Shown here: piece after piece, positions 1 through 14,586 of the stretch
Layout of the letters: each line of letters opens with the position of its first letter
How positions within the stretch are numbered: position 1 is the first letter of the stretch
From: a virus
Lineage: Duplodnaviria; Heunggongvirae; Uroviricota; Caudoviricetes
DNA: 16,435 nucleotides
Virus record (IMG/VR): IMGVR_UViG_2690315742_000009
Span: 1-16,435 of that record
Direction: 5' to 3' (one strand)
Made by a program: the position numbers and the translations under genes
Notes under the pieces: model-generated
What the model saw: only the letters and a program-made list of their open reading frames with translations
Databases searched by the model: none
What the model was told of the DNA's origin: nothing

Positions 1-1119
1 TCAAATAACCAACTTAACCCATTCCTGACCTCGAGTATCGTTATAGCGATCGGTGGTTGCCTGGACTTTATGTCCTAGTAATGTTTTTGTATCAATACCC
101 TGTGCACGGTACAGCCGTTCTGATAGAGAGCGTTGTTCATGAAATGTTGGCGGAGTTTTTCCTGCTGGTGGAATTATCCCAGCCAGATCCCGTGCTTTGG
201 CAAAGTAGTCGCTCAGGTTGTCTTTACTCATCGGCTTCGGTTGTTTCTGGTGCCGACTATGGATTAGATATGGACTTAATATTCTGTCTCGGCACCCATC
301 AATAACTTCTTTTAACGTTATCCCAATGGCATCACATCGTAGTGTAAGCGGTAACGCCAGACGCATTCCGGTTTTTCCCTGGGTGATATGCAAGTGTTCG
401 TTCCACACATCTGAAAAACGCATGTGGCAAATGTCATCACGGCGCTGACCAGTAACAATCGCAAGAAGCATTGCGTTACGGATAAAGTGTTTTTCAGGCG
501 TTGCATTGTAAATTTTTTGCCAGTCTTCCATGGTGAGCCTGGCTCTGGTTACTTTAGGGATCGGTTTACGGGTAGCCTCCGGAGGATTCCATCCAGGAGG
601 AACTTCCCCTGCATGCTGTGCTTCTTTATAAATATCAACCCATAATCCACGATTTACTCTCGCTGTGCTGACCATGTCTTTATCCAGCCACTCATCCAGT
701 ATTAATGCAAAGTCTCTTACTTCCAGTTCTTTCAATGGGTGGTTTCCCAGACGGGAAACCAGGTATGCAGCCATTCGGGTTTTTTCTTTGTGAGTTGTAG
801 CTGCAATATCTCCATTTTTCAGTCGCGTGTCCTGTATTTTCAGATATCGATCAACCCATGCCTTTAATCTGATACCCCGACGTTTTGTTGCTGACGGACT
901 TTCATCAATTTTGCGCATGAAATATTCAGCTTCTGCTGCAGCTATTCGCTGATTGGCTGTGGAAGCGATTTTTTCTGCCTTACCTTTGTCTGTTCCGAGT
1001 CCGTGAAATTTTCCAGTCACAGGATTTTTATACTGGTAGTAAACTCTGCCAGTTCTGCGATCAAACTTTTCGTAAAGACCGGCTACGTCAGTGCTGTTTT
1101 TTCGTGGCCTCGGTGACAT
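1..1119 (-). CDS. int: Phage-type tyrosine recombinase (integrase)
   Basis: 372-aa ORF, ATG at 1117-1119 with AGGAG about 12 nt upstream, TGA at 1-3. C-terminal half has the R...H-x-x-R...Y arrangement of tyrosine recombinases (TGQRRDD, HEQRS, TDRY). Excisionase-like gene lies immediately upstream, overlapping by about 30 nt. Confidence 0.85.
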   Translation of the reverse strand: MSPRPRKNSTDVAGLYEKFDRRTGRVYYQYKNPVTGKFHGLGTDKGKAEKIASTANQRIAAAEAEYFMRKIDESPSATKRRGIRLKAWVDRYLKIQDTRLKNGDIAATTHKEKTRMAAYLVSRLGNHPLKELEVRDFALILDEWLDKDMVSTARVNRGLWVDIYKEAQHAGEVPPGWNPPEATRKPIPKVTRARLTMEDWQKIYNATPEKHFIRNAMLLAIVTGQRRDDICHMRFSDVWNEHLHITQGKTGMRLALPLTLRCDAIGITLKEVIDGCRDRILSPYLIHSRHQKQPKPMSKDNLSDYFAKARDLAGIIPPAGKTPPTFHEQRSLSERLYRAQGIDTKTLLGHKVQATTDRYNDTRGQEWVKLVI

Positions 1120-1357
1120 GAGTTAAAATCTCCTTCAGTGCATCATCATCGCCAGTATGAATTTCCGGCGCAATTCCCGTTTCACCAGGCCCAACAAATA
1201 CTGCTCGGCGATCTATCAGCCAACGCCCACGAATTTTTTGTGGCCTTGGAACGATGTATCCTAGTTTTCCGTATTTCACCAGGGTAGTGTTTGTTATTGG
1301 GAGACTGAACCGTTTTGGTTTCCACTCGTCGAGCGTTATCAGGTACTGTTCGCTCAT
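1088..1357 (-). CDS. Excisionase-like small protein (DUF1233-type putative Xis)
   Basis: 89 aa from ATG at 1355-1357 with GGAG 8 nt upstream; the track's longer start is a GTG three codons earlier. Position directly upstream of and overlapping int is the classic xis position. Family assignment is from memory. Confidence 0.6.
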   Translation of the reverse strand: MSEQYLITLDEWKPKRFSLPITNTTLVKYGKLGYIVPRPQKIRGRWLIDRRAVFVGPGETGIAPEIHTGDDDALKEILTHVTEATKKQH

Positions 1358-1418
1358 GGCTATCACTCCGGAACGCGCCAGTTGCAGAATATCAACGACA
1401 ACTGGCGACGGTTGAACA

Positions 1419-3860
1419 TTAAAAATCAGCCTGACTCGGGATCAGTTTTTGCCAGATAACTGAAACGTATTTTGCCTGGTAACGAGCGTCATCAAGTGCA
1501 TTATGGCGCTCACCTTCGAATGGAATAGCCGTTCTGGCATCGAAGTCTATGGCTTTCCCCAGCTCAACGATTGTGCGTACATCGCGATCGTTGTAGTAAC
1601 GCCACGGGCAGGGGATCCCCTGCCGTTCGTATGAACGGCGCAAAATCGTGTTGTCGAAGTTGGCTCCATTTCCCCAGACCTGAACAAAAAATTCACCGGA
1701 GTTTTCGTCGATAAATTCCCGCAATTGTAACAGTGCATCATCTAACGGGATTTCATCGGTCATAATGGCAGATTGCGCTTCGCGTGATTGCTTAAGCCAC
1801 CATTTAATGGTGTCCCGATCAATGACTCCGCCAGCAGTTTCCAGATCGATAGTCTTACTAAATTCCGGTCCCATATCTCCGGTTTGCGGATCGAAAAATA
1901 TTGCACCTATTGAGATGATCGGGGCATCAGGATTTTTTCCCATGGTTTCAAGGTCGATCATTAGATGGTCACACGTCCTGCTGGTGGATGTGATTTCGTG
2001 ATGACCGTTCACCTTAATTGAGTGATCTGCCGTCTCGCCAGTTTTATTATCGCTGGCGTGATGCTGATTGCCGCCAGGGTTCTCCTTGTGTGGATGTTCA
2101 GCGCCTTCCATTTCCTCCGGATCATTTTCCTGAACTTCAACCTGATTCTCTTCATCGAATGTTTCCTGGTATGTTGCGTCGCCCATCACCGCGCCACAAT
2201 CAGGGCAGTTGCCGCCACCGCTCTGACCGCAGGCGGTGCAGACTTTTTCCGGTTCCTGTTGCGCTACTGGTTCGGATTGTTTCGTTTCTGGCTCGTTTTG
2301 TAACGCATTTGGGCTGTTTTGTTCCGCTTTTTGGTCGTTCCGTTCCGATTCATGCTGGTTCTGGTTCACAGAATCGCGAGTCTGGATCCCCTTGACCCAT
2401 TTCGGATCATTAGGGTCGCTAATCCCCTCAACAAATTCACCACGCGATACAGCAAGTAACTTATCGGCGTCAGGCTGGCTGATATTGGCTGCCTGCATAA
2501 TTTTGTTTACTTCGTCAGCGGTGACTTTTACTTGGTTAGCGGAACTCACCTGCGACTGAGCATCCAGCGACTGCGCGTTCTGGCCATGTTCAGTTGTATC
2601 CGGTTCCATTGTTTCAGTTGTTGCCTGTTCACCTGCCATTGCGTCAGATGGTTGTGGTTTTTCTTCTTCTGTTTCACGCTCAGTAACCACCTCGCGGTTA
2701 ATTTCTTCCAGGATATCTTTTTCCGGCGTATGCCGGGCAGCTGTGAGAGTTTCCTTGCTGGGGTTCTCGTGATCAGTTTCCGTCAAATAGGCGTTGATAT
2801 ACCCCTGAAGGCGTCCCGGGTAGTGATAAAATTCAGGGTGTGCGCTTCGGATAAGTGCAAAAATAGCGGCGCGGGAATAGTCCAGAATACCCGGGGTTGC
2901 ACGAAGTGCTGCGGACCATTCTTTGAACGGACTTTCTTTGTTCAGGACTACTTCTTTTGCGCGACGATAAACGCTGCCCGGAATTTCATAAATATTAAAA
3001 TCCATCGGAAGTGTGGCTGCTGCAATCTCCACATCCAGTGTGTCGAGGGTGTGTACTAAATTCGGATTGCGATCGGTTTTGTTCCCACCGCCAGCATTAG
3101 CACCGGAAGCCGTGCGGGTGATGCGTGAAACACGATTTCCTTTCATCCACTCTTTTGTCAGCAGACCCCGATCAGTGTAGTCAGCGTCCAGGTATGCTTC
3201 GAAAAAAGCAGTTATTAGTCCCAGGTCTGAATTACCAGGATTAGGGAAAACTTTGTCAGTGTCACGAACCAGTTTGTGGAGGTCGCGAATCTCCAGCGAG
3301 TCGAGCAGACTGGTTTTATGCGAAATAGCCAGGGCAGTAACAGCCGGTAGTTCTTCAGCCCGTGCAATGTGTAATGCCTGGAGTTCGTCGCGTGAAACGT
3401 GCGTTACTGGTTTTTCGCTGCCGTGTTGAGCAAGCCAACGAATGGGCAGTTCCTGACCGGAGACAGGCAGAAGCATGCTCTCCTCAATCTCAGTCATGTC
3501 TTCGCCGTTGATGTTGGTATTGTCAGTGCTGGCTGGTTTGTCCTGAACAGAGGGGGAAGGGCCGATAAATGTCATTGTGATGCCATCTTTCCCGCCTTTT
3601 TCATAGCGGTTGCAGAATTCAGTATCAAACACGCCTTCTGGCGGAAGGTCGTCAACAACGGGCAAATTGACGCGGACGGGTTTTTTAAAGTCGTCTTCAT
3701 CATAATCGTTGTCATCCATTGCGGTAATGCAGCGGGAGATTGCAACAGATAATTTTTTTGCTGTAGTCCAGTAAAAACCACCTTTAATTCCCAGGCGTTT
3801 TCTTACTTTGTCATTTTTTGCTTCGCAATATAGTGCAAATTCTTCTTTATCAGTGCTCAT
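1419..3860 (-). CDS. Exonuclease: RecE-like N-terminal region fused to a DEDDh (DnaQ-like) 3'-5' exonuclease domain
   Basis: 813-aa ORF, ATG at 3858-3860 with GAGG upstream. Residues about 110-600 closely resemble the non-catalytic N-terminal part of Rac RecE as I recall it (e.g. [71 protein letters not shown]). The C-terminal 200 aa carry DEDDh motifs (DLETMG; [12 protein letters not shown]; [13 protein letters not shown]) in place of the RecE nuclease domain. A long acidic low-complexity linker lies between. Confidence 0.8.
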
Positions 3861-3953
3861 TATTGGTAAACCTCATCACAGATTTAAGGGTGAACAAATC
3901 TCTGCCATTGCTGACATATAAGAATGAAACTGGATATTTATTACGGTGCTGTT

Positions 3954-4145
3954 TTAAAATCCTGCCGGGATTTCGTTATTATCCTGGTGAATAACTTTAT
4001 CGACCGGATAACAGTTGCCTGGAATTTTCTGTTCGGTTGCTGCTGCCATACATTCCTGCATTGTTCTGTGAACACTGACTGCAATATCAACTGGCTCTCC
4101 GGAAACAAGAAAAACCGTCAGAATAAGTGCAAATACTGGATTCAT
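3954..4145 (-). CDS. ydfD: YdfD-like small lysis protein (63 aa, N-terminal hydrophobic segment)
   Basis: ATG at 4143-4145 overlaps the dicB stop (ATGA). Protein MNPVFALILTVFLVSGEPVDIAVSVHRTMQECMAAATEQKIPGNCYPVDKVIHQDNNEIPAGF matches my memory of Qin YdfD in length and sequence. TAA at 3954-3956. Confidence 0.7.
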   Translation of the reverse strand: MNPVFALILTVFLVSGEPVDIAVSVHRTMQECMAAATEQKIPGNCYPVDKVIHQDNNEIPAGF

Positions 4146-4330
4146 TGTGCACATCCTTTTGGCATCAGACGTAAACGGGCCAGCATTGAAACAATGCATA
4201 CTTTATTTAATAACTCCCGTTCGTGTTTTCTTTTGTTAATGGCATCTTCAGTAAATACAGGATTACTGATAGTGACACCAATTTCAAAACAACCTTCAGA
4301 CGTATTAACGTTTGGTAATAACGTTTTCAT
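4142..4330 (-). CDS. dicB: Cell division inhibitor DicB (62 aa)
   Basis: ATG at 4328-4330 with GAGGG about 7 nt upstream; the track's GTG at 4435 is an upstream extension. Protein MKTLLPNVNTSEGCFEIGVTISNPVFTEDAINKRKHERELLNKVCIVSMLARLRLMPKGCAQ matches recalled DicB of the Qin dicBF operon. Lies immediately downstream of DicF. Confidence 0.75.
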   Translation of the reverse strand: MKTLLPNVNTSEGCFEIGVTISNPVFTEDAINKRKHERELLNKVCIVSMLARLRLMPKGCAQ

Positions 4331-4503
4331 TATCGCGCCCTCAACAATGAGTTTTGTGATGCGGTGCCTGGTGCCTCCAGGTGACGTTAACCAGTTAACA
4401 ATTAACGCCGGATACAGAGAATCCACCCATAACACTGTTTTTGGTTTTAACTGTTCCGCGTGCGCTTAGCCGCATTCACCGCATCACAAAATTCACTTTA
4501 AAA

Positions 4504-4556
4504 AGGGCGGCAGAGCAGTCACGGAGTAAAACTGATACCGCCAAACGTCACCAGAA
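4504..4556 (-). ncRNA. dicF: DicF small RNA (53 nt)
   Basis: Minus strand reads TTTCTGGTGACGTTTGGCGGTATCAGTTTTACTCCGTGACTGCTCTGCCGCCC followed by TTTT, which matches the 53-nt E. coli DicF sequence as I recall it. Contains a GC-rich terminator stem (GGCGG...CCGCC) and sits between a ydfC-like ORF and dicB as in the Qin operon. Confidence 0.8.
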
Positions 4557-4898
4557 AATTGATAACAGAGGGCGTTGCAGTGGGGTTGTCACTTAAGCGT
4601 ATGGTCAACCTGACAACCCGGTGTCCTCAACGGGGGAAGGAATAACCCCGCCATACTTACCGCCGCGCCATTTCGCGGATTGCCACAACCGGAAGCGCAC
4701 GGTCGACGAAAATTTAACGACAGGCTATCTATGAACCAGCTACCTCGCCGTGCGCTTTCGCGTTATGGTCTGACTTTTCAGGGAAATATCCTTTCAGTAA
4801 ACTGTCAGTGCCGGATGCTCACCCGTGTCCGGCGCACGCACTCCACCTCACCCGTGGAGAACTCCTTAATTACCAACCTTAGCTTCGTTGGTTAGCTA

Positions 4899-5117
4899 TT
4901 AACGCTGGTATGTAATCATTCTGGCAATGCTTAATGCCGCTGCTTTTTCCAGCCTGGTGATATCCTGCTCCAGAGCGGACAGATTTTCAGCCTGCTTAGC
5001 CCTGGCTTCATTGGCCCATTTCAGATCCTGCGCTGCATTAATTTTCTGGCGCATCCACTCATAAAGTTCATCATCGGTATAGTCTGGCGCGATGATGACG
5101 GGTTCTCGTTTCTGCAT
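4899..5117 (-). CDS. Small protein in ydfC position of the dicBF operon (72 aa)
   Basis: ATG at 5115-5117 preceded by a strong SD (AAGGAG, 7-nt spacer). Same length and operon position as Qin YdfC; sequence identity not verified. Confidence 0.6.
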   Translation of the reverse strand: MQKREPVIIAPDYTDDELYEWMRQKINAAQDLKWANEARAKQAENLSALEQDITRLEKAAALSIARMITYQR

Positions 5118-5188
5118 GTCGGCTCCTTGTGGTTAGCGTTGCCTGCTTTTAACCACGTCAGGCGAGGTGGTATCCTCTGAGGGGTCTG

Positions 5189-5545
5189 TTACTCGAGAGG
5201 AAATTGGTTATGAATACAATCAAGTTTTCTTGCCCAGAATGTGGTGGCGAAGTCTTTGACACATCCTTTAAGCCGCAGGGCTCTGACAGTTTCGCGGGAG
5301 CCATCTGCAAAAATTGTGGTCACCTTGTAACTGAAGATGAGTCCTCGCAGTTCGATGACGAAATCGTTGACAATATCTTCGGTGCACTCACCAGAGACTT
5401 TCTGAAATAAAGACGCATACCGCTTAGTTACCGCTCTGATAACTCTTACCTGTCCGGCAATGGCGCTGATGTCAATATAAAGCGCCATTGCTGCTTCTTT
5501 GCCGATCCCGTGATGCCTTCCATTCTGATGTTTGACTTCGCCCAC
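5189..5545 (-). CDS. Hypothetical protein (118 aa from GTG, or 99 aa from ATG at 5488); competing call with the plus-strand ORF 5210..5410
   Basis: Co-directional with the early-left operon. GTG at 5543-5545 preceded by AGAGGA (9 nt). Codon first-position G is about 44 percent in the non-overlapping part 5411-5545. Lies where ydfA/ydfB-type genes would be expected by synteny. It shares exact codon triplets in antisense with the plus-strand zinc-ribbon ORF, so one of the two is probably an artifact. Confidence 0.35.
   Translation of the reverse strand: MGEVKHQNGRHHGIGKEAAMALYIDISAIAGQVRVIRAVTKRYASLFQKVSGECTEDIVNDFVIELRGLIFSYKVTTIFADGSRETVRALRLKGCVKDFATTFWARKLDCIHNQFPLE
5210..5410 (+). CDS. 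Small acidic zinc-ribbon protein (66 aa); competing call with the minus-strand ORF 5189..5545
   Basis: ATG at 5210 with GAGAGG about 10 nt upstream. Two CxxCG knuckles 20 residues apart (CPECGG ... CKNCGH) form a canonical zinc-ribbon signature; acidic C-terminus. Opposite in orientation to the surrounding operon. Confidence 0.4.
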   Translation: MNTIKFSCPECGGEVFDTSFKPQGSDSFAGAICKNCGHLVTEDESSQFDDEIVDNIFGALTRDFLK

Positions 5546-5727
5546 TGAGAAATCCTCTGTTTCCCCTTAACGCCGGGGTAGCGGAACAAAAACCTGCTGC
5601 ATAGTTAAAGTTGAACCCTGCCGTCATGTTCTTACGCCTCGGGCTGGCTACTTAACCCCTGACCACTGCCTGGTAACTCGAAGTATTGCCCTGCATTCTG
5701 TGGGGCGGGGTGGGTTGGTATGTTGTT

Positions 5728-5756
5728 AAGGTAACAAGAGTTACCTTTAGAGTCAA
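5728..5756 (-). promoter_or_regulatory. pL-like early leftward promoter with overlapping repressor operator
   Basis: Minus strand reads TTGACT, 17-nt spacer, TACCTT. An 18-bp perfect palindrome AGGTAACAAGAGTTACCT (plus 5729-5746) overlaps the spacer and -10. Sits just downstream of the repressor gene terminator, facing the dicBF-exo-xis-int operon. Confidence 0.5.
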
Positions 5757-5786
5757 TACAATGTTGCAAAAGGTACATTTGAGGGC

Positions 5787-5811
5787 ATAAAAAACCCGCA
5801 ATGAATGCGGG
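5787..5811 (-). terminator. Rho-independent terminator after the repressor gene
   Basis: Minus strand CCCGCA-TTCAT-TGCGGG followed by TTTTTTAT; 6-bp GC-rich stem immediately after the repressor stop codon (5819-5821). Confidence 0.7.
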
Positions 5812-5818
5812 TTCTGAC

Positions 5819-6493
5819 TCAGTCTAAGTATTGATGTATTTGTGAAACTTTACCTTTAATGGTGTAACCACCATTCAGTTCGATGGGTTTGTAAAGCGGA
5901 TTCAGTGACAACAGATAGATGTTTGGTCCGTCAATCGCAACTTTTTTTAGTGTTACGTTTGGCGTTCCTTCCAATTGGATTAAGATTATTTTTCCCACCA
6001 GTTCTCTAATGTTACTTGAGCATGGTGTGATCAGCACGGTAGATCCGTCGGGGATGGTTGGGAGGCCGTTAGAGTTTGTCATCGCATCTCCCTCAACATG
6101 CAATAAAAAAGAGTTTTCAGCGGTTTTTGTCATGACATCAACCCAATTCTTAATACCAGGAATCTCGGTTACTGGACAACTCATATCCCAATAACCAGCC
6201 TGTTCCCACGTTAAAACGGGCAACCGGGCGATGTTGTCACTAATGTAAGGGTACTGATTCAGACGCAGATCATCGGTTTTATCGTGACAGTCCTTTCCAT
6301 AAAGAATCCATTCAGGAGATTTGGAAAGCAATTTTGACAGTAGATGCAAATTCTCACCGTCAGGTTTTGAAGAGCCATTTTCCCATTTTGTTACGGATAC
6401 ACGAGATATGCCGATTGCTTTCGCAACCTGCTGTTGGGTTAATCCAACGTCTTTTCGACGATTCCGAATACGTTCGCTGATAGTGTTTTTCAT
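5819..6493 (-). CDS. cI-like prophage repressor (N-terminal XRE-type HTH plus C-terminal S24/LexA-like peptidase domain)
   Basis: HTH signature LTQQQVAKAIGISRVSVTKWENG near the N-terminus and a LexA/cI-like C-terminal domain. Preferred start is ATG at 6491-6493 (224 aa, no SD, operator abutting, suggesting a leaderless transcript as for lambda cI). Alternative ATG at 6536; the track's TTG at 6592 would overlap the cro-like start. Confidence 0.85.
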   Translation of the reverse strand: MKNTISERIRNRRKDVGLTQQQVAKAIGISRVSVTKWENGSSKPDGENLHLLSKLLSKSPEWILYGKDCHDKTDDLRLNQYPYISDNIARLPVLTWEQAGYWDMSCPVTEIPGIKNWVDVMTKTAENSFLLHVEGDAMTNSNGLPTIPDGSTVLITPCSSNIRELVGKIILIQLEGTPNVTLKKVAIDGPNIYLLSLNPLYKPIELNGGYTIKGKVSQIHQYLD

Positions 6494-6509
6494 GTAACCA
6501 ATGTTACTA
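6492..6509. promoter_or_regulatory. Operator-like palindrome (ATGTAAC-CAAT-GTTACTA) at the repressor start; PRM-like region
   Basis: Third copy of GTAAC-N4-GTTAC, directly abutting the repressor ATG. A TAACAT -10-like hexamer lies 7 nt upstream of the ATG on the minus strand. Confidence 0.45.
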
Positions 6510-6528
6510 CCAAGTGATGTTGCTATGG

Positions 6529-6558
6529 TTGACATTGCTATGTAACTATTGTTACCCT
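6529..6558 (+). promoter_or_regulatory. pR-like early rightward promoter with overlapping operator
   Basis: TTGACA (6529-6534), 18-nt spacer, TACCCT (6553-6558). Palindrome GTAACTATTGTTAC (6542-6555) overlaps the spacer and -10, mirroring the pL-like architecture. SD AGGAG and the cro-like ATG follow at 6585. Confidence 0.5.
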
Positions 6559-6584
6559 CCCGCTCGAAATAACAGGAGAGTTTT

Positions 6585-6797
6585 ATGTTCAAAGATGATG
6601 TTCTGCGCTATTTCAAAAAAAAGCGACTAGTAGCTGAGGCTCTTGGAATTTCACATGTGGCTGTTGTGCGGTGGAAAGCAGTTATTCCCAAACTTCGCGC
6701 AATGGAACTGGATGAAATTACTAACGGTGAATTGAAATACAACCCAGAACTTTACAAGAAGCAGGATAGCACCTCGAACGAAGGAAAGAATGATTAA
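6585..6797 (+). CDS. Cro/DicC-like small HTH regulator (70 aa)
   Basis: Divergent from the repressor; AGGAG 7 nt upstream of ATG. Sequence pattern (LRYF...LVAEALGISHVAVVRWKA...RAMELDEITNGELKYNPELY) resembles DicC/YdaS-type Cro-like proteins from memory. Stop overlaps the next gene's start by 1 nt. Confidence 0.75.
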   Translation: MFKDDVLRYFKKKRLVAEALGISHVAVVRWKAVIPKLRAMELDEITNGELKYNPELYKKQDSTSNEGKND

Positions 6798-7222
6798 TGA
6801 AAATCAAGCATGAACACATCCGCATGGCGATGAATGCCTGGGCGCATCCGGACGGCGAAAAAGTACCGGCTGCGAAAATTACCAAAGCGTATTTCGAGCT
6901 GGGAATGACGTTCCCGGAACTGTATGACGACAGCCATCCGGAAGCCCTGGCTCGCAATACTCAGAAAATATTCCGCTGGGTGGAGAAAGACACCCCTGAT
7001 GCTGTTGAAAAAATTCAGGCGTTGTTACCAGCGATCGAAAAAGCAATGCCACCTCTGCTGGTGGCCCGAATGCGCAGCCACAGTTCAGCCTATTTTCGGG
7101 AGCTGGTGGAGATGCGGGAACGACTGGTGAGAGACGCTGATGATTTTGTCGCAGTGGCGATCGCTGGTTTCAATCAGATGAATCGTGGTGGTCCGGCGGG
7201 AAATGCCGTGGTGGTGCATTGA
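6797..7222 (+). CDS. cII-position regulator (YdaT-like, 141 aa)
   Basis: Translationally coupled to the cro-like gene (TAATG overlap). Sits between cro-like and replication genes, i.e. the cII position. N-terminus MKIKHEHI resembles Rac YdaT as I recall it; unverified. Confidence 0.55.
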   Translation: MKIKHEHIRMAMNAWAHPDGEKVPAAKITKAYFELGMTFPELYDDSHPEALARNTQKIFRWVEKDTPDAVEKIQALLPAIEKAMPPLLVARMRSHSSAYFRELVEMRERLVRDADDFVAVAIAGFNQMNRGGPAGNAVVVH

Positions 7223-7243
7223 TAACGTGTTCTGGGGGAGGGG

Positions 7244-8209
7244 ATGAAGCTCCTTTTTGCTGAACGTCCGCTGGTTATAAACACGCAGCTGGCGATGAAA
7301 ATTGGTCTGAACGAAGCCATCGTGTTGCAGCAGCTGCATTACTGGTTGAGAGATACCAGTTCCGGCATGGAATGTGATGGTGTTCGCTGGATTTATAACA
7401 CAACAGAACAATGGCTGGAACAGTTCCCGTTCTGGTCAGAGTCAACGTTAAAACGCGCATTTGCAAGTCTGAAAACGCTGGGGCTTTTGCGTTGCGAAAA
7501 GCTCAACAAATCAAAGCGTGATATGACTAATTTTTACACGATTAATTACGAGAGCGAGCTTTTAGATGGTGGCAAAGTGAACGAATCCATCAGGTCAAAA
7601 TGCGCCGCTCCATCAGGTCAAAATGACACGATGGAAGAGGTCAAAATGGCACGCTCCATTGGTTCAAAACGACCCAATGTCATCGGGTCAAAATGGCCTG
7701 ATGATCTTACAGAGAATACAACAGAGATTACTACAGAGAATAAAAAAACTTCTCGTCCGGAAGCTTCGCAACCGGACATGCAGACGGCTGAACAGGATTT
7801 TTTAAACCGACACCCTGACGCGGTTGTGTTCAGTGCGAAAAAACGCCAGTGGGGCAGCCAGGAAGATTTAGCGTGTGCGCAGTGGATCTGGGGACGAATC
7901 GTGAGTCTTTACGAGCAGGCTGCCAGCGATGATGGCGAAATCATGCGACCGAAAGAACCAAACTGGACTGCATGGGCCAATGATGTGCGCACAATGCGGA
8001 TGCTGGATGGCAGAACTCACAGACAAATTTGCGAAATGTTTGGTCGGGTACAGCGGGATCCATTCTGGGTAAAAAACGTCATGAGCCCGTCAAAGCTTCG
8101 CGAAAAATGGGATGAGCTGGTTATTCGTCTGGGGCGTTCGCCTGTACAGCGTTGCGTGAATCACATTTCTGAACCGGACACCGAAATTCCGCCGGGGTTC
8201 AGGGGGTAA
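7244..8209 (+). CDS. Replication initiator (lambda O-like replisome organizer) with internal origin
   Basis: 321-aa ORF directly upstream of the DnaC-like loader. Five 23-bp-spaced iterons and an AT-rich tract lie inside the coding region, as ori-lambda lies within O. GGAGG sits only about 2 nt from the ATG, so the start is uncertain. Confidence 0.7.
   Translation: MKLLFAERPLVINTQLAMKIGLNEAIVLQQLHYWLRDTSSGMECDGVRWIYNTTEQWLEQFPFWSESTLKRAFASLKTLGLLRCEKLNKSKRDMTNFYTINYESELLDGGKVNESIRSKCAAPSGQNDTMEEVKMARSIGSKRPNVIGSKWPDDLTENTTEITTENKKTSRPEASQPDMQTAEQDFLNRHPDAVVFSAKKRQWGSQEDLACAQWIWGRIVSLYEQAASDDGEIMRPKEPNWTAWANDVRTMRMLDGRTHRQICEMFGRVQRDPFWVKNVMSPSKLREKWDELVIRLGRSPVQRCVNHISEPDTEIPPGFRG
7587..7695. 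repeat. Iteron array: 5 direct repeats of about (CCATCA)GGTCAAAATG with exact 23-bp periodicity; putative replication origin
   Basis: TCAAAA cores at 7596, 7619, 7642, 7665 and 7688. First two copies are identical 16-mers (CCATCAGGTCAAAATG); the others are degenerate (GAGGTCAAAATG, TTGGTTCAAAACG, CGGGTCAAAATG). Confidence 0.7.
7709..7748. repeat. AT-rich tract with three phased ACAGAGA(A/T)TA repeats ending in A7; putative DNA-unwinding element of the origin
   Basis: TACAGAGAATA, ACAGAGATTA and TACAGAGAATAAAAAAA spaced about 11-12 bp apart (helical phasing) immediately downstream of the iterons. Confidence 0.55.
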
Positions 8210-8215
8210 CGGGCT

Positions 8216-8962
8216 ATGAAAAATATTGCGGCAGATGGTGTTCTTGAGCGTATCCGTAAGCTGGCCCCGCAGCATGTAACTGCGGCGTACCGGACAGTGG
8301 ACGAGTGGCGGGAGTGGCAGCTTGCAGAAGGGCGAAAACGTAGCGAGGAGATCAACCGCCAGAATCGCCAGTTACGGGTGGAAAAATTCCTGAATCGTTC
8401 CGGTATCCAGCCGTTGCACCAGAAATGTTCGTTTGCGAATTACCAGGTGCAGAACGACGGACAGCGTCATGCACTCAGCCAGGCGAAGTCCATTGCAGGC
8501 GAACTGATAACCGGGTGCACGAATTTTGTGTTCAGCGGTAAGCCGGGTACCGGAAAGAATCATCTGGCAGCAGCCATTGGCAACCATCTTCTGGCGAAAG
8601 GTCGCAGCGTGATTGTGGTGACGGTGGCGGATGTGATGCTGGCGTTACACGGCAACTACGACAACAAAAACTCAGGCGAAAAATTTTTGCAGGGGTTGTG
8701 TGAAGTTGACCTGCTTATCCTGGATGAAATCGGTATGCAGCGGGATACGCGTAACGAACAGGTCACACTGAACCAGATAGTCGATCGCAGAACGGCCTCG
8801 ATGCACAGCGTCGGGATGCTGACAAACCTGAACCACGCAGCGATGAATACGCTGCTTGGCGAACGCGTGATGGACCGCATGACCATGAACGGTGGTCGCT
8901 GGGTGAATTTTAACTGGGAGAGCTGGCGCCCGAATGTTGGTCAGCCAGGTATTGAAAAGTAA
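8216..8962 (+). CDS. DnaC-like replicative helicase loader (IstB-like AAA+ ATPase)
   Basis: Walker [16 protein letters not shown] and Walker [10 protein letters not shown]; 248 aa; immediately downstream of the O-like gene. Confidence 0.85.
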
Positions 8963-8982
8963 TTTTTACCGGGAGGAAATTT

Positions 8983-9726
8983 ATGGAGACTGTTTTTGAC
9001 GCACTGAAAGCGATGGGAAAAGCCACGTCGGTAGAGCTGGCTGCGCGACTTGATATCAGTCGTGAAGAAGTACTGAACGAGCTGTGGGAACTGAAAAAGG
9101 CTGGTTTTGTTGATAAAAGCGCGTACACCTGGCGTGTGGCTGATAACAACGTTCAGCAGGAACAGCCAGCGCCAGAAGAACAGCCGGAAGAAACCACCAC
9201 GGCGACAGTAGCGAAAATCTCAGAGTGCGATTTAACCGCGACGATTGAACAACGCGGACCACAAACGGCGGATGAACTGGCTACGCTGTTCGGTACAACA
9301 TCCCGCAAAGTGGCTTCAACGCTGGCAATGGCAATCAGCAAAGGTCGTCTGATTCGTGTTAATCAGAACGGTAAATTTCGTTACTGCATGCCGGGCGAGA
9401 ATTTACCAGCAGAGCCGAAAGCGGCATCGGTAGCGGAAACTGATGGTAAAGCCTTTCCTCAGCCTGCATGTGTTGCGTTACCAGTACAGGAAGCTGCAAC
9501 ACAGGAAGATATTAAAACAGAAACTGTGGCGGACATTGTGCAGCCGCTTGAGAAGCGAGTGGATAATCTGGTTCTGCCATCGCTGCGACAGGCAAACCGC
9601 GAACTGCGTCGGGCGAAAAGTGATATCAGGAAATGGGAGCGAGTCTGTGCCGCGCTGCGGGAGCTGAATAAATATCGCGATATTGTCGCCCAGCTTTGCC
9701 AGGAGGCAACCAGTGAGAAAAATTAA
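8983..9726 (+). CDS. Hypothetical protein with two winged-helix-like segments (DUF1627-like, from memory)
   Basis: GGGAGG 7 nt upstream of ATG. Acidic, Q/E/P-rich linker between two HTH-like stretches ([28 protein letters not shown]; [32 protein letters not shown]). Confidence 0.5.
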
Positions 9727-10282
9727 TTATCAGGCGCTACGTGAGATAGCAAAACAGGCAACACAAGGCGAATGGGTCGCATTTATTTCGCCGGGCAAAT
9801 ACGGCACGTACGCCGTGCACACGCCAGGAGATAATCATCACGGAGATATTGTCGACTGGCCTGGATTCGACGGACAGAAAAACGCAGAGAACAACGCTCG
9901 TTATATCGCAGCTTTCAACCCTGAAGTAGTGCAGGCGCTGCTGGATGAACGGGAAGCCCAAAGCAAACGCATTGCAGAACTGGAAGCTAATTTTGCGACG
10001 CTGGCAGTGGAGAATGTGGGGTTAAATAAATTCATTAAGGATGATTGCTTTATTTATACAAGCGATGACATCAGCCCACGCGATGCAAATGGATTCAAGC
10101 CTGAAACGCCAGCTACTGACGCTTTCCTGGTTGATATACAGGCGGTGGCGTTTAACGAGCTTCGCGCGGCGTTTGTCAGGCATGCAAAAGTTGCAGAACT
10201 GGATGATGCCGATACTGTAACGCTTAAGGAAGTGATGGATGCGCTGCTGCATTGTGTAGAACAGCTTCGCGCTCCAGAATAA
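9713..10282 (+). CDS. Ead/Ea22-like protein (189 aa from GTG)
   Basis: AGGAGG (9701-9706) 6 nt upstream of GTG at 9713; the track's TTG at 9683 is less likely. N-terminal motif [19 protein letters not shown] resembles the Ead/Ea22 family from memory. Overlaps the previous gene by 14 nt. Confidence 0.6.
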
Positions 10283-10377
10283 ATAAATTTATCACTGTAA
10301 ATAAAATTTAATCCTTAACCGGAGGGATTTCTACACCCTCAGAACAGCAGGAGGCCACCCGAAAGGGCGGTAGTGAA

Positions 10378-10560
10378 ATGCGAAAGTTCAAAGTAATTAT
10401 TGAAACTGGAATAGCTGGTGGAGATTTTGAGGATGTATTCGAAGTGGACGATGACGCAACACCTGATGAAATTCATGACGAAGCAAAAGAAATTTTCTTT
10501 AACTACTGCAATTACTCATATCACGAAATAAAAGACGAAGAGGAAGAACAAAATGGCTGA
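10378..10560 (+). CDS. Small highly acidic hypothetical protein (60 aa, 19 D/E against 5 K/R)
   Basis: ATG at 10378. An AGGAGG lies 24 nt upstream but is brought closer by a predicted GAAA-loop hairpin between SD and ATG. Stop overlaps the next ORF's start. Confidence 0.45.
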   Translation: MRKFKVIIETGIAGGDFEDVFEVDDDATPDEIHDEAKEIFFNYCNYSYHEIKDEEEEQNG

Positions 10561-10729
10561 TTTTGGTTCAACTAAATATAACGCCAGTTTTGAAGAATGG
10601 CATGAACTGTTAATGGACTATGCAGAGTTACGCGGTGGAAGTGCCGCCGATGCTGAAGCATGGCGTGATGACTATGAAGCAGGAAAAACTCCGGTCGAAG
10701 CATATTGTGATGAGTGGGGCTATGAATGA
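10553..10729 (+). CDS. Small acidic hypothetical protein (58 aa, 15 D/E against 4 K/R)
   Basis: Not in the supplied track (below 60 aa). ATG at 10553 with GAGGAAG upstream, overlapping the previous stop. Its TGA overlaps the next gene's ATG (ATGA). Sequence MADFGSTKYNASFEEWHELLMDYAELRGGSAADAEAWRDDYEAGKTPVEAYCDEWGYE. Confidence 0.45.
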   Translation: MADFGSTKYNASFEEWHELLMDYAELRGGSAADAEAWRDDYEAGKTPVEAYCDEWGYE

Positions 10730-11241
10730 GCGAGATTAATTATCAGGAAGGGCATGAAACGGCAGGGCAGGCAAAACCAGTTGCATGGCGATATCGCTAC
10801 GTGAAAAAAGGCGTTACGGACTTTCAGGAGAAGATGTGGGTTGGTGACTGGAAATATGTACCGACAAAAGAGGATTGCAACGACAGGCCGAGCTATGAGA
10901 TTCAGGCATTATTCACTACCCCGCCAGTCCCGGTGATATCAGAAGGACTGGTTAAAGCCGTGCGCTTTTATGAACAGGTAAAGCGTGAAAATCCGCCAGC
11001 CGAAACAGGAGCATGGAAAGACGCTGTTGACTGGGTGCTCAAAGAGGCCTGCTGTGCTGTCATTCTGGGTAAAGCCGACAATCCACTAGCATCCAGTAAT
11101 CAGGTTGGCGAATTAACAATGTGGGTTAAACGACTGGTCAGTCAACTGAAAAAAGCTAATCCAGACTGCAAATTACCGGAGATGGCGATGCATTACCTGA
11201 AACGAAATGGACTGATAAGCGTGGAGGATGTTTTACGATGA
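10726..11241 (+). CDS. Hypothetical protein (171 aa) with Ead/Ea22-like N-terminal motif
   Basis: ATG coupled to the upstream ORF (ATGA). N-terminus SEINYQEGHETAGQAKPVAW parallels the N-terminus of the 9713..10282 protein. Confidence 0.6.
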   Translation: MSEINYQEGHETAGQAKPVAWRYRYVKKGVTDFQEKMWVGDWKYVPTKEDCNDRPSYEIQALFTTPPVPVISEGLVKAVRFYEQVKRENPPAETGAWKDAVDWVLKEACCAVILGKADNPLASSNQVGELTMWVKRLVSQLKKANPDCKLPEMAMHYLKRNGLISVEDVLR

Positions 11242-11321
11242 CCTGGCCTGAGGCATTTACAACGGCAGGAATTGCAATGGCGGCGGCGCTGGTGGTGTAT
11301 TCGATTTGCCGCTGGGGATAA
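11238..11321 (+). CDS. Possible 27-aa hydrophobic peptide (MTWPEAFTTAGIAMAAALVVYSICRWG)
   Basis: ATG overlaps the stop of the 171-aa gene (ATGA); single predicted transmembrane-like stretch. Very short, so speculative. Confidence 0.25.
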   Translation: MTWPEAFTTAGIAMAAALVVYSICRWG

Positions 11322-11328
11322 AAACGGT

Positions 11329-11356
11329 TTGCGGGAAAAGGAGAGTTAAGTAGAAT
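11329..11356 (+). promoter_or_regulatory. Candidate promoter of the hok mRNA
   Basis: TTGCGG, 16-nt spacer, TAGAAT. The predicted start (about 11361-11365) coincides with a 5' element (GCGGGTGCTTGAGG, 11361-11374) that is complementary to the mRNA 3' end. Confidence 0.4.
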
Positions 11357-11475
11357 TGCAGCGGGTGCTTGAGGCTATCTGTCTCAGGCATGAACACCAA
11401 AAGGCAGATAGAGAAAAGCCCCAGTTAACATTACGCGTCCTGCAAGACGCTTAACATTAATCTGAGGCCATATCT

Positions 11476-11535
11476 ATGCGACACATAGAGATTAGCCTCT
11501 TACGGACCGAAAGGTCAAGGAGAAGCAGGCTATGA
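11476..11535 (+). CDS. Short upstream reading frame coupled to hok (mok-like, 19 codons)
   Basis: ATG at 11476; its TGA overlaps the hok ATG (ATGA). Analogous to mok-dependent translational coupling in hok/sok loci, but much shorter than classical mok. Confidence 0.3.
   Translation: MRHIEISLLRTERSRRSRL
11489..11518 (-). promoter_or_regulatory. Candidate promoter for a Sok-like antisense RNA
   Basis: Minus strand TTGACC (plus 11513-11518), 18-nt spacer, TAATCT (plus 11489-11494). Predicted antisense start near 11482, reading across the start of the upstream coupled frame. Confidence 0.4.
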
Positions 11536-11687
11536 AGCAGCAAAAGGCGATGTTAATCGCCCTGATCGTCATCTGTTTAACCGTCATAGTGACGGCACTG
11601 GTAACGAGGAAAGACCTCTGCGAGGTACGAATCCGAACCGGCCAGACGGAGGTCGCTGTCTTCACAGCTTACGAACCTGAGGAGTAA
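11532..11687 (+). CDS. hokD: Hok/Gef-family type I toxin (51 aa)
   Basis: AAGGAG SD. Protein MKQQKAMLIALIVICLTVIVTALVTRKDLCEVRIRTGQTEVAVFTAYEPEE has a single transmembrane helix plus a conserved Cys-containing periplasmic tail, and matches my memory of HokD (RelF). Confidence 0.85.
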   Translation: MKQQKAMLIALIVICLTVIVTALVTRKDLCEVRIRTGQTEVAVFTAYEPEE

Positions 11688-11755
11688 GAGACCAGGCGGG
11701 GGAGAAATCCCTCGCCACCTCTGATGTGTCAGGCATCCTCAACGCACCCGCACGT

Positions 11756-11783
11756 AACCCGCTTCGGCGGGTTTTGTTTTTTC
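11756..11783 (+). terminator. Rho-independent terminator of the hok transcript
   Basis: AACCCGC-TTCG-GCGGGTT (UUCG tetraloop, 7-bp stem) followed by TTGTTTTTT. Confidence 0.75.
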
Positions 11784-11854
11784 CTGGCATTCTGGTTTAC
11801 AATTCGCACGCCAGCCTGAACAACTGGCACCTGCTGCGCCAGCAGAGACAACCG

Positions 11855-12127
11855 ATGGCGCACAATACCAAATATCACAATTCTGATACCGACCTTGCCA
11901 GCAGGTGCGGGCTGTGTTCTCACGCATTCAAATATGACTGGTATCAGCACGATCCCTGCACTGAAGAACAGGCCGAATGGCTGATTCATAACTACCGCAG
12001 ACGTGGGTATGAGTTTAAGAAAGCCCTTAGCCTCGACTACCGTCACTGGATAATCTACGTCAGGCTCCCTTATTCCGAACGCCCGCCGCGTCCGTCCCGC
12101 ACATTCCAGCAACGCATCTGGAGGTAA
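11855..12127 (+). CDS. Small Cys/His-containing protein in the position of Qin rem (90 aa)
   Basis: ATG at 11855. The track's upstream start at 11726 would run through the hok terminator hairpin, so I truncated it. Contains CGLCSHAFKYDWYQHDPC. GGAGG near its 3' end serves the next gene. Confidence 0.5.
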   Translation: MAHNTKYHNSDTDLASRCGLCSHAFKYDWYQHDPCTEEQAEWLIHNYRRRGYEFKKALSLDYRHWIIYVRLPYSERPPRPSRTFQQRIWR

Positions 12128-12128
12128 T

Positions 12129-13184
12129 GTGAGGGTATTAGTGACTCCTGAAATTGCTCACCGTCTGGGGATTGTACTTTTCAGGCCCGGTCCTGATGCG
12201 ATGCCTTTGTTTATGCAGGGGCGTGTACTGGTCGAGCCGGAACCAAAAAGCATGCGCGGTCTGCCGTCCGGGGTCGTTCCTGCCGTTCGCCAGCCGCTGG
12301 CGGAAGACAAATCTCTGCTGCCATTTTTCAGCGATGAGCGGGTGATTCGTGCTGCCGGCGGCGCTGGTGCACTGTCTGACTGGCTACTGCGTCATGTCAA
12401 ATCCTGCCAGTGGCCTCATGGTGACTACCATCACAGTGAAACCGTCATACATCGTTACGGTACCGGCGCGATGGTGTTGTGCTGGCACTGCGACAACCAG
12501 CTGCGTGACCAGACCTCCGAATCACTGGAACATCTGGCTCAACAAAACCTGGCAGCATGGATGATTGACGTCATCGGTCACGCAGTAAGCGGTACGCAGG
12601 AGCGTGAATTATCTCTGGCTGAATTATCCTGGTGGGCAGTCCGCAATCAGGTGGCGGACGCGCTACCGGAAGCGGTATTACGTCGTTCGCTGGGGTTGCG
12701 TGCGGAAAAAATCCGCTCAATGTACCGTGAAAGCGACATCGTACCGGGAGAGCAGACCGCCACCAGCATACTGAAGCAGCGCACAAAAAATCTTGCGCCG
12801 CTGCCTCACGCCCACCAGCAAAACCCGCCACAGGAAAAGACGGTGGTCAGCATTGCTGTTGATCCGGAGTCACCGGCTCAGTATCTCCAGCGCCAGAAAC
12901 CACAACGGGAAGAGATGCCTGTATACACGCGCTGGGTAAAAACGCAGAAATGCATGACGTGCGGTAATCAGGCAGATGATCCGCATCACATCATTGGTCA
13001 TGGACTGGGAGGGATGGGAACAAAGGCTGATGATTTGTTTGTTATTCCGCTGTGCCGTAAATGTCATAACGAACTGCACGCCGGGGTAAAAGATTTTGAA
13101 GAAAAACACGGCAGCCAGCTGTTGTTGCTGATTCGTTTTTTAATGCACGCGAGAAATTCGGGTGTCCTGAAGTGGAAAGCATGA
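12129..13184 (+). CDS. DUF968-type protein with C-terminal HNH-like Cys/His motif (YdfU-like)
   Basis: GTG at 12129 with GGAGG 5 nt upstream. C-terminus CMTCGNQADDPHHIIGHGLGG...CRKCHNELH resembles an HNH/zinc-finger nuclease motif. Upstream of rusA, in the nin-region equivalent. Confidence 0.75.
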   Translation: MRVLVTPEIAHRLGIVLFRPGPDAMPLFMQGRVLVEPEPKSMRGLPSGVVPAVRQPLAEDKSLLPFFSDERVIRAAGGAGALSDWLLRHVKSCQWPHGDYHHSETVIHRYGTGAMVLCWHCDNQLRDQTSESLEHLAQQNLAAWMIDVIGHAVSGTQERELSLAELSWWAVRNQVADALPEAVLRRSLGLRAEKIRSMYRESDIVPGEQTATSILKQRTKNLAPLPHAHQQNPPQEKTVVSIAVDPESPAQYLQRQKPQREEMPVYTRWVKTQKCMTCGNQADDPHHIIGHGLGGMGTKADDLFVIPLCRKCHNELHAGVKDFEEKHGSQLLLLIRFLMHARNSGVLKWKA

Positions 13185-13550
13185 ATGACTGAACGCATAG
13201 AATTTGTTTTGCCTTACCCGCCGACGGTGAATACCTACTGGCGACGTCATGGCAATACGTATTTCATCTCGGAGGCCGGAAAGCGTTATCGCCATGATGT
13301 GGCGCTAATTGTTCGCCAGCAGCGGTTGAAATTAAACCTGTCCGGAAGGCTGACGATAAAGATTATTGCAGAGCCACCGGATAAGCGCCGTCGTGACCTG
13401 GACAATATCCTGAAAGCACCACTGGATGCGCTGACGCATGCCGGACTACTCATAGACGACGAGCAGTTTGATGAAATCAATATTGTGCGCGGTCAGCTCG
13501 TTCCTGGTGGGCGGCTGGGGATAAAAATCACAGAACTGGAGTGCGCATGA
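13185..13550 (+). CDS. rusA: RusA Holliday junction resolvase
   Basis: 121 aa. Conserved RusA signature (PPDKRRRDLDNILKAPLDALTHAGLLIDDEQF ... GGRLGIKITE) aligns with E. coli RusA as I recall it. ATG overlaps the upstream stop. Confidence 0.9.
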   Translation: MTERIEFVLPYPPTVNTYWRRHGNTYFISEAGKRYRHDVALIVRQQRLKLNLSGRLTIKIIAEPPDKRRRDLDNILKAPLDALTHAGLLIDDEQFDEINIVRGQLVPGGRLGIKITELECA

Positions 13551-14236
13551 ATAACCAGTATTTACAGTTTGTGCGTGAGCAGCTCATTATCGCCACCGCT
13601 GATTTGAGTGGGGCAACAAAAGGTCAGCTTGAAGCCTGGCAGGAGAATGCCATGTTTGATACAGGGCGTTACAGGCGTAAAAAAATCCGGTACCGAGATG
13701 AAGTGACTGGAAGAATGATAACGCGGGATAGTCCACCGATACCGGGAAAACAATCACTGGCGAAAGGCTCATCAATTGCTCTGGTAAGTCAGGTTGAGTT
13801 TTCGACATCATCATGGCGACGGGCAGTTCTGTCTCTTGAAGAACATCATAAAGCCTGGTTGTTGTGGTGTTACAGCGGGAGTATTTGTTGGGAATATCAG
13901 ATCGCGATAACACAGTGGGCGTGGAATGAATTTAATACTCAATCCGGTACCAGAAAAATTGCAGGGAAAACGCAGGAACGCCTGAAAAAATTAATCTGGC
14001 TGGCGGCGCAGGCATTAAAAGCAGAACTTTTTGGTGGGGAAGGTTATGAATACCAGGAGCTGGCATTACTGGCGGGAGTGACAACTAAAAACTGGTCCAA
14101 AACATTTACTCGTCACTGGGTTGCAATGAAACACATTTTTCACCGACTTGATAGTGAGGCTTTATTGTTTGTAATGAGAACACGTTCAAAACAAAAGGCG
14201 GCATTTTCAAAGCAAAGTGTTGCAAAAGTAGATTGA
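13547..14236 (+). CDS. Putative late-gene antiterminator (Q-like) by position; function unverified
   Basis: 229 aa from ATG at 13547 (GGAG 7 nt upstream, ATGA overlap with the rusA stop). Sits between rusA and a promoter/terminator pair followed by tRNAs and lysis genes, the canonical Q position. Confidence 0.45.
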   Translation: MNNQYLQFVREQLIIATADLSGATKGQLEAWQENAMFDTGRYRRKKIRYRDEVTGRMITRDSPPIPGKQSLAKGSSIALVSQVEFSTSSWRRAVLSLEEHHKAWLLWCYSGSICWEYQIAITQWAWNEFNTQSGTRKIAGKTQERLKKLIWLAAQALKAELFGGEGYEYQELALLAGVTTKNWSKTFTRHWVAMKHIFHRLDSEALLFVMRTRSKQKAAFSKQSVAKVD

Positions 14237-14248
14237 AAGGCATATATT
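14220..14248 (+). promoter_or_regulatory. Candidate late promoter (pR'-like) at the 3' end of the Q-like gene
   Basis: TTGCAA (14220-14225), 17-nt spacer, TATATT (14243-14248); the predicted transcript runs about 70-80 nt into the terminator at 14303-14326. Confidence 0.45.
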
Positions 14249-14302
14249 TCATGCAAATCTGATATTTTGCCGATTTTGTACGTGATGGCAAAAGCAAACA
14301 AA

Positions 14303-14326
14303 ACCCGCCCACAAGCGGGTTTTTTG
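14303..14326 (+). terminator. Rho-independent terminator (tR'-like)
   Basis: ACCCGC-CCACAA-GCGGGT followed by TTTTTTG. Confidence 0.7.
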
Positions 14327-14392
14327 TGCCACTTATCTCGGATAGACATGGTGAATGCGCTGGTGGAGGAGATAAGGGTGATTTTTGAATGC

Positions 14393-14421: not shown

Positions 14422-14430
14422 CCTGCGCCC

Positions 14431-14506: not shown

Positions 14507-14507
14507 G

Positions 14508-14584: not shown

Positions 14585-14586
14585 GT

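Follow-up and report, generated by a model that had tools for sequence, protein, structure and literature searches.

A lambda-like, DicB-type Escherichia coli prophage carries in its early region a 383-bp cassette in which two open reading frames (ORFs) run in opposite directions over the same nucleotide triplets. The DNA analysed is a window of 16,435 nucleotides (positions 1 to 16,435 of the IMG/VR record IMGVR_UViG_2690315742_000009), which represents the early region of this prophage. The shorter frame, on the plus strand, encodes a small zinc-ribbon protein and is referred to here as the Zn gene; the longer one, on the minus strand, is referred to as the minus ORF. Purifying selection acts on the plus frame inside the Zn ORF and on the minus frame immediately outside it. 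On balance, the comparison of related sequences favors the view that both frames are genuine protein-coding genes. Whether bacteria and phages have fully overlapping antisense protein genes is disputed, and most candidates have come from expression data in a single strain. The support in this case is comparative. It consists of eight diverged lineages, a codon phase that switches at the gene boundary, and synonymous rates in one frame that depend on the amino acids of the other.

The coordinates of both ORFs and of the signals around them are given in Table 1. Positions 5210 and 5543 are both congruent to 2 modulo 3, and the two ORFs therefore consist of identical triplets. In this register, position 1 of a plus codon is position 3 of a minus codon, and position 2 is common to both. 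The Zn gene lies wholly inside the opposite ORF. The ~70 codons of the minus ORF that follow its N-terminal part run exactly antisense to the Zn gene. The ORF list used here begins the plus ORF at TTG 5204 rather than at ATG 5210. A previous sequence-only reading of the window had already placed two ORFs on the same triplets at this site, and the ORF listing and coordinate arithmetic agree with it. It had also described the plus ORF as a 66-residue frame with a Shine-Dalgarno sequence and two CxxCG knuckles spaced by 20 residues (CPECG at residues 8-12 and CKNCG at residues 33-37). The minus ORF was described as a 118-residue frame, co-directional with the operon, with a Shine-Dalgarno sequence before its GTG and a bias toward G at the first codon position of its non-overlapping part. 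Each of these statements is borne out by the sequence, and the bias amounts to G in 20 of 45 codons. The general rule invoked there, that same-triplet antisense frames tend to stay open, is also sound. Given the Zn protein and the codon usage of this phage, the antisense frame of this one sequence is open with a probability of ~0.1. An open antisense frame in one sequence is unremarkable, and only its persistence in relatives can take it beyond chance.

Relatives were gathered by protein searches and contig look-ups, which yielded 58 distinct haplotypes in eight lineages: the E. coli group, a Citrobacter/Klebsiella group (L087, L088, L101-104), C. freundii (L089-91, L139), K. michiganensis (L092), Enterobacter (L093/94, L126-144), and three more lineages (L203; L225/226; L227). 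Scans of viral contigs with the window’s own protein returned near-identical copies only, and divergent queries were needed to reach the other relatives. The identity of the Zn protein to that of the window falls to ~45% among them, and both ORFs are intact in every lineage.

These comparisons identify the plus ORF as a real gene. Its predicted product belongs to the ECs_2282 family and is a small, acidic zinc-ribbon protein of the C4 type. The protein matches the NCBIfam model NF047912 (ECs_2282 family putative zinc-binding protein) with 57.3 bits against a cutoff of 37, over profile positions 1-56 of 60. RefSeq annotates the ORF as a coding sequence (CDS; WP_001092153.1), and PHROG 4852 also matches it (E=1e-9). 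The four cysteines (C8, C11, C33, C36) do not vary among true homologs, even in the most distant ones at ~45% identity. Three of the four Cys codons alternate between TGC and TGT, and their first base, which is a four-fold degenerate site of the minus frame, is unchanged. Two motifs, SDSFAGA and CGH.VTEDE, show no or almost no variation. By parsimony, changes at the three plus-frame codon positions number 22/11/87 in the E. coli group and 55/20/107 over Zn codons 3-49 of all haplotypes. In E. coli pairs, the Nei-Gojobori ratio of non-synonymous to synonymous differences (pN/pS) is 0.10-0.17 in the plus frame versus 0.8-1.8 in the minus frame; across comparisons the plus-frame ratio is 0.10-0.39. 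An OLGenie-style estimate for the plus frame (dNN/dSN) is 0.24 (confidence interval, CI, 0.16-0.34). A Shine-Dalgarno sequence (AGGA or AAGGAGG) is found at the matching distance before the Zn ATG in 7 of 7 aligned lineages. Conservation of both cysteine pairs and the frame followed by the wobble pattern had been proposed by the sequence-only reading as ways to decide between the ORFs, and inside the overlap both come out for the plus ORF.

Could the minus ORF be the only real gene, with the zinc-ribbon ORF as its shadow? This is very improbable, even though the minus ORF is the longer of the two, is co-directional with the operon, is called in several GenBank phage records and in PHROGs, and shows no nonsense alleles of the kind found in the Zn ORF. 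The wobble pattern and pN/pS favor the plus frame throughout the overlap, and the first base of the Cys codons is kept in all lineages although the minus frame leaves it free to vary. The family match above cutoff and the conserved Zn Shine-Dalgarno sequence also argue against this possibility, as do homologous zinc ribbons that occur without an antisense ORF. One of these, a distant relative, is the N-terminus of a 530-residue SNF2-type phage protein, a helicase (L125 1483-3075), and resembles the Zn protein (CPHCG...ECGHVVTEDE); no long antisense ORF was found in the gene encoding it. The reading of the Zn ORF as an artefact is contradicted by these data.

Nonsense alleles of the Zn gene do occur. 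E14* (GAA>TAA at 5249-5251, as in L211 and L228) is a Phe>Leu change in the minus frame; at least three haplotype backgrounds have it, and the O26 strain RM8426 was confirmed as a carrier. Another allele, E44*, leaves the minus protein unchanged. In genomes with a broken Zn ORF (E14*, O26 RM8426), RefSeq switches its annotation to the minus ORF, as WP_001240336.1. Records from O111, O145, and O55:H7 strains share a ‘hypothetical protein’ annotation and may carry E14*.

The Zn protein is acidic and resembles generic zinc ribbons weakly. Its AlphaFold model is of low confidence (mean predicted local distance difference test score, pLDDT, 58.6), and Foldseek gave no significant match for it. In a sequence search of the PDB, the best result was a non-significant alignment to the zinc ribbon of TFIIE-alpha (E=0.22). 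An assignment to the Lar family of restriction alleviation proteins (TIGR03655) was rejected at 15.7 bits, below the cutoff of 39.6. An assignment to known anti-phage defence proteins by PADLOC was likewise rejected, the best hit being a sub-threshold match to PDC-M14A (E=0.0019, 16.5 bits). A profile scan of genome contigs with the Zn alignment returned only two short unrelated matches.

The minus ORF is probably also a gene, as suggested by a coding signal of its own beyond the overlap. PHROG 21318 matches its residues 20-118 (E=1.4e-65, profile positions 1-99 of 99), and several GenBank phage records annotate it as a CDS. The periodicity of substitutions changes frame right at the Zn stop. 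Over 5411-5488, the changes in the three phases number 96/44/54 (p=8e-6), with the maximum at the minus wobble position and the minimum at position 2. The pattern appears in the lineages outside E. coli (61/30/30) and in the E. coli group (29/11/19), and it vanishes upstream of the minus start. The minus-frame pN/pS over the same interval is 0.14-0.6. The N-terminal minus peptide is conserved across the eight lineages with conservative replacements; it remains recognizable at ~30% identity and its 26 codons hold the conserved protein motif L.VDASAVAGQTRIVEAVTKRYLPL. An ATG with a Shine-Dalgarno sequence, as read from the sequences, stands at or near the homologous start in most lineages. The AlphaFold model of the minus protein reaches a pLDDT of 70 and consists of three helices, a beta hairpin, and a helix. 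The sequence-only reading had concluded that one of the two ORFs was likely an artefact. That conclusion is unsupported, since the checks proposed there come out for the plus ORF and the minus ORF has its own coding evidence outside the overlap.

The 19 codons between GTG 5545 and ATG 5488 form an optional extension. This stretch is open in the four 118-residue relatives of the E. coli group whose sequence was followed across it, and it is absent from other lineages. In one relative, the GTG is an ATG. Its periodicity is not significant (31/18/30). In Enterobacter relatives (L094 4094-4474), no ATG stands at the usual start position of the minus ORF, and the ORF is lengthened at its N-terminus by 32 residues that include CKSCG.

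Does selection also constrain the part of the minus ORF that is antisense to the Zn gene? Here the evidence is mixed and of moderate strength. The minus frame is uninterrupted in 58 of 58 haplotypes from the eight lineages, and its stop is always located in the interval from 7 codons upstream of the Zn start to 2 codons downstream of it. Of 45 distinct Ser and Leu codon states at Zn codons 3-66, none is TCA, TTA, or CTA, although across the genes of this phage these triplets account for 24% of Ser and 21% of Leu codons. The corresponding probability is 8e-6 if each distinct codon is taken as an independent draw, which overstates independence. A further indication comes from the 23 Zn codons that are two-fold degenerate and encode a conserved residue. 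Wobble changes at these codons are more numerous the milder the resulting minus-frame change (Spearman rho 0.75, p=4e-5; permutation p=6e-5), with means of 4.9 changes at I/V or L/L sites and 1.9 at K/E, A/T, V/M, or F/L sites. Mild minus-frame effects thus go with a 2.6-fold higher frequency of change at Zn synonymous sites. In a control of 655 such codons from ordinary genes of the same phages, the ratio was 0.64, with no such bias. The direction of the effect is equal in both subsets (p=0.017 and 0.09).

The main rival explanation holds that only the Zn protein is functional. The minus ORF would be translated from the early transcript, its start and first 26 codons alone would matter, and its tail would be a tolerated shadow kept open largely by codon chance; translation might, for example, keep ribosomes on the messenger RNA and so avoid polarity on ydfC-dicF-dicB. 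We regard this explanation, including the suggested role, as rather unlikely, and the following observations speak for it or, more generally, against dual coding. The substitution pattern in the overlap is dominated by the plus frame. A crude estimate of the minus-frame ratio of non-synonymous to synonymous rates (omega) is ~1, although such parsimony estimates score multi-base codon changes as non-synonymous and overstate it. The corresponding OLGenie-style ratio for the minus frame (dNN/dNS) is 0.46 (CI 0.34-0.61), which overlaps the value of 0.70 (CI 0.52-0.98) obtained as a null from ordinary genes (the window’s exo, ydaT, DUF1482, and others) read in the same-triplet antisense frame. The probability that the frame stays open by chance is 0.02-0.2 per lineage, and a tree-aware test of stop avoidance is weak (p ~0.03). 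Divergence of the minus protein is fast in the E. coli group, with 70-81% identity versus 89-91% for the Zn protein, and constraint on its N-terminal part there is weak (pN/pS 0.4-0.5). Searches for the minus protein found no relatives outside the pair among 1.84 billion representatives and no Pfam, NCBIfam, or fold match (Foldseek not significant). The Zn frame itself carries nonsense alleles in many prophages, E14* and E44* being confined to the E. coli group. Lastly, the promoter and terminator proposed below for the Zn gene are motif-level assignments, and a consensus promoter and terminator scan called neither.

Other observations speak against the shadow-tail explanation. Changes at Zn wobble positions depend on their amino-acid effect in the minus frame, with an unbiased control. 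The three codons that would stop the minus frame are missing from all codon states, the minus stop stays close to the Zn start in eight lineages, and the structural model of the overlapped part has moderate confidence. The dNN/dNS of 0.46 looks significant when compared with 1, but it loses weight against the antisense null of 0.70 from ordinary genes. A same-triplet antisense dNN/dNS below 1 is not by itself evidence of a gene, because ordinary single-coding genes give ~0.70.

The sequence-only reading had also proposed a homology search of both translations. For the plus ORF, it leads to the ECs_2282 family as described above. For the minus ORF it leads to PHROG 21318, but beyond the pair this protein is an orphan. 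A PADLOC scan of the minus protein gave no hit.

The sequences flanking the Zn gene suggest that it may have its own transcript. An extended -10-like motif, TGGTATCCT, precedes the Zn ATG, and the corresponding GTGGTATYYT is kept 33-37 nt upstream of the ATG in six of seven lineages, with GGTATATCCT in the seventh. Downstream of the Zn stop and within the 5' end of the minus ORF, a hairpin at 5455-5493 is followed by CTTCTTTGCC. Its predicted folding energy is -23.1 kcal/mol on the plus strand versus -19.4 on the minus strand. RNAalifold recovers 8 pairs, of which one is compensatory (UA 5 / CG 5). In 9 of 12 sequences, one pair reads G.U in plus-strand RNA and A.C in minus-strand RNA. The hairpin is kept in most lineages and lost in L203; T runs follow it in several relatives, and the T tract varies. 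These features are consistent with a terminator of a short plus-strand transcript. With a loop of 13 nt, the hairpin is one to which the terminator scan is blind. The only promoter that the scan called, at 5193-5220, was ruled out as the Zn promoter; it overlaps the Zn ATG. The Zn gene seems to be an accessory gene with its own transcription, oriented against the early operon.

The -10-like motif is part of a 37-bp element at 5140-5176 (TGCCTGCTTTTAACCACGTCAGGCGAGGTGGTATCCT), which also contains a GCCTG...CAGGC hairpin. Prophages without the cassette have this element at 100% identity. Relatives from Citrobacter, Klebsiella, and Enterobacter carry a close version of it ahead of the Zn ATG.

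The conserved hairpin and the conserved non-coding flanks could also mean that neither ORF matters as a protein and that what is conserved acts as RNA or DNA, for example as an antisense RNA or as a terminator in the early leader. This is the least probable of the explanations considered, and the codon periodicity contradicts it. Three-base periodicity is strong, in two different frames, and amino-acid motifs are kept at 45-60% identity while the DNA diverges. An Rfam scan of 5100-5830 gave no match.

If the cassette does encode two proteins, how might they be used? In a lysogen, the repressor would hold off the leftward and rightward early promoters (pL and pR), and only the Zn gene could be expressed. 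After induction, early transcription would cross the Zn gene in antisense and make the minus protein. It might also oppose Zn expression, by transcriptional interference or by RNA pairing. In that case, each product would be linked to one of two opposite life-cycle states. The minus frame is most likely the younger, overprinted frame and the Zn ribbon the older one, because only the Zn ribbon has deeper relatives; it is also the more strongly constrained of the two. Such an origin is also suggested by the orphan minus ORF, which starts outside the Zn gene and reads through it in antisense. These ideas can be combined in a tentative model, which we consider possible but doubtful. The cassette would be a self-contained life-cycle switch, with the Zn protein made in the lysogen from its own promoter and the overprinted orphan made only when the early promoter fires. 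The overlap would enforce mutual exclusion, and the unit would move intact between leftward and rightward enterobacterial operons.

The cassette is found in 937 of 5426 complete E. coli genomes (~17%), including O157 and other enterohaemorrhagic E. coli (EHEC), and its flank is found in 4064 of 5426. The sequence-only reading had expected ydfA/ydfB-like genes at this site, and strain 503440 indeed has a ydfA-ydfB cassette in place of the ORF pair between the same flanks. The minus ORF is co-directional with the early operon in every context. The operon concerned is that of pL in the E. coli group, L089-94, L101-103, L225, and L227, and that of pR, downstream of cro, in L087, L088, and L104. 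As the minus ORF always runs in the direction of the operon, whether pL or pR, the pair moves as a unit of fixed polarity. In some E. coli relatives (L097 1602-2509; L095 2057-2721), the cassette follows a toxin-antitoxin module of the paaR2-paaA2-parE2 or HigB type and not a classical repressor. The arrangement resembles that of CP-933P; a report on the toxin-antitoxin genes of CP-933P covers the neighboring genes and not the locus of the ORF pair (PMC8630535).

The map of the early region, with its leftward and rightward genes, is included in Table 1. The palindrome at 5730-5745 recurs as GTAAC-N4-GTTAC at 6493-6508 and 6541-6556, both within the repressor-cro interval. Of these three palindromes, which probably serve as repressor operators, one is the left site and the other two lie between repressor and cro; overall, the motif count is not above the shuffle expectation (7 found versus 4.4 expected). 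Because the left palindrome recurs twice between repressor and cro, pL may be placed upstream of the minus ORF, which would make the minus ORF the first ORF of the leftward operon. Between this operator and promoter region and the cassette lies an unannotated stretch of ~160 bp (5560-5722). Matches to this stretch, at 88-98% identity, account for most of the 4064 genomes hit, and its K-12 counterpart is in Rac, between racR and the small pL-side genes. No unusual predicted fold was found in this conserved 160-nt leader. Elsewhere in the window, a sok-type antitoxin RNA (11363-11534, plus strand) and a cluster of four tRNA genes (Met, Lys, Thr, and Gly; 14431-14740, plus strand) were noted. A 181-residue ORF (3924-4469, plus strand) runs antisense to both dicB and the DUF1482 gene; no Pfam family matches it, and it probably represents a shadow ORF of the ordinary kind.

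Table 1. Features of the antisense ORF pair and of the surrounding early region (positions in the window).
Feature	Coordinates	Strand	Details
Zn gene (plus ORF)	5210-5410	+	ATG 5210, stop 5408-5410, 66 residues
Shine-Dalgarno AGAGGA of Zn gene	5196-5201	+	8 nt ahead of ATG
Minus ORF, full	5189-5545	-	GTG 5545, stop 5189-5191, 118 residues
Minus ORF, conserved core	5189-5488	-	99 residues from ATG 5488
Minus ORF, N-terminal 26 codons outside overlap	5411-5488	-	
Optional 19-codon N-terminal extension	5489-5545	-	from GTG 5545; E. coli group only
Shine-Dalgarno GAGGA before GTG 5545	5553-5557	-	7 nt before GTG; read from sequence
Antisense ORF pair	5189-5545	both	
Exchangeable cassette with both ORFs	5177-5559		383 bp
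Extended -10-like motif TGGTATCCT, putative promoter	5168-5176	+	~33 nt before Zn ATG
13-bp hairpin, then CTTCTTTGCC, putative Zn terminator	5455-5493	+	45 nt after Zn stop
Integrase	1-1119	-	
Large exonuclease	1419-3860	-	
DUF1482 and DicB	3954-4435	-	
DicF RNA	4505-4556	-	
ydfC	4899-5117	-	next leftward-operon gene after minus ORF; PHROG 1744; RefSeq ydfC
Operator-like palindrome GGTAACAAGAGTTACC (OL)	5730-5745		perfect GGTAAC-N4-GTTACC
Repressor (HTH_3 and Peptidase_S24)	5819-6535	-	Pfam; RefSeq LexA family protein
Cro	6585-6797	+	
YdaT-like protein	6797-7222	+	
Replication genes	from 7244	+	

Databases already hold each of the two proteins separately, and nothing was found that treats both as one locus. 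Literature searches by locus tag, accession, and family identifier found no paper on either protein and no expression data. Public annotation is in conflict at this site, as RefSeq, GenBank phage records, and PHROGs list different proteins depending on which frame is intact. The locus is easy to manipulate, and natural as well as designable mutations stop one frame while being silent or mild in the other, so that dual coding is directly testable.

The pair can be compared with several known systems. In hundreds of RefSeq E. coli genomes, the ECs_2282 family (NF047912; WP_001092153.1), of which the 66-residue plus ORF with its two CxxC knuckles is a member, is annotated as putative zinc-binding only, and the annotations retrieved make no mention of an opposite-strand ORF. 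PHROG 21318 (WP_001240336.1) is treated as an ordinary hypothetical phage protein, whereas here it is the exact antisense of an ECs_2282 gene and an orphan confined to the pair. The ydfA-ydfB cassette of Qin-type prophages occupies the same slot, downstream of the repressor and upstream of ydfC/dicF/dicB; it differs in consisting of two small co-directional genes that have no similarity to the pair and no antisense zinc-ribbon ORF. The geometry is that of shadow ORFs in the same-triplet antisense frame, and their tendency to lack stops applies here. Unlike a shadow ORF, the minus ORF extends 26 codons past its partner with its own coding signature and never breaks. A label that implies no coding signature of its own and disruption in relatives fits neither ORF.

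The sequence-only reading had considered an antisense gene inside the pL operon unusual. It is less so in view of sieB, which in K-12 Rac likewise lies inside the leftward early region on the opposite strand and which in an Enterobacter relative is directly upstream of the Zn gene on the same strand. Like sieB and other ‘morons’, which are accessory genes expressed in lysogens, the Zn cassette is present in some prophages and absent from others, and the Zn gene would be expressed in lysogens too. The two genes have no sequence similarity. In K-12 Rac, sieB overlaps the convergent ydaF by 4 bases, whereas the Zn gene is wholly inside the opposite ORF. The published embedded antisense ORFs of EHEC reportedly resemble the present case in having few or no relatives elsewhere. 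The evidence for the ORF pair comes from the comparison of eight lineages; the pair uses the same-triplet frame, and its shorter, embedded gene is the more strongly constrained of the two. The EHEC cases are ano/ECs2385 (PMC5960689) and three more in EDL933 (PMC9927249); as reported, they are likewise protein ORFs embedded in antisense in the same kind of organism, were supported by RNA sequencing and ribosome profiling in one strain, and include one in frame -3.

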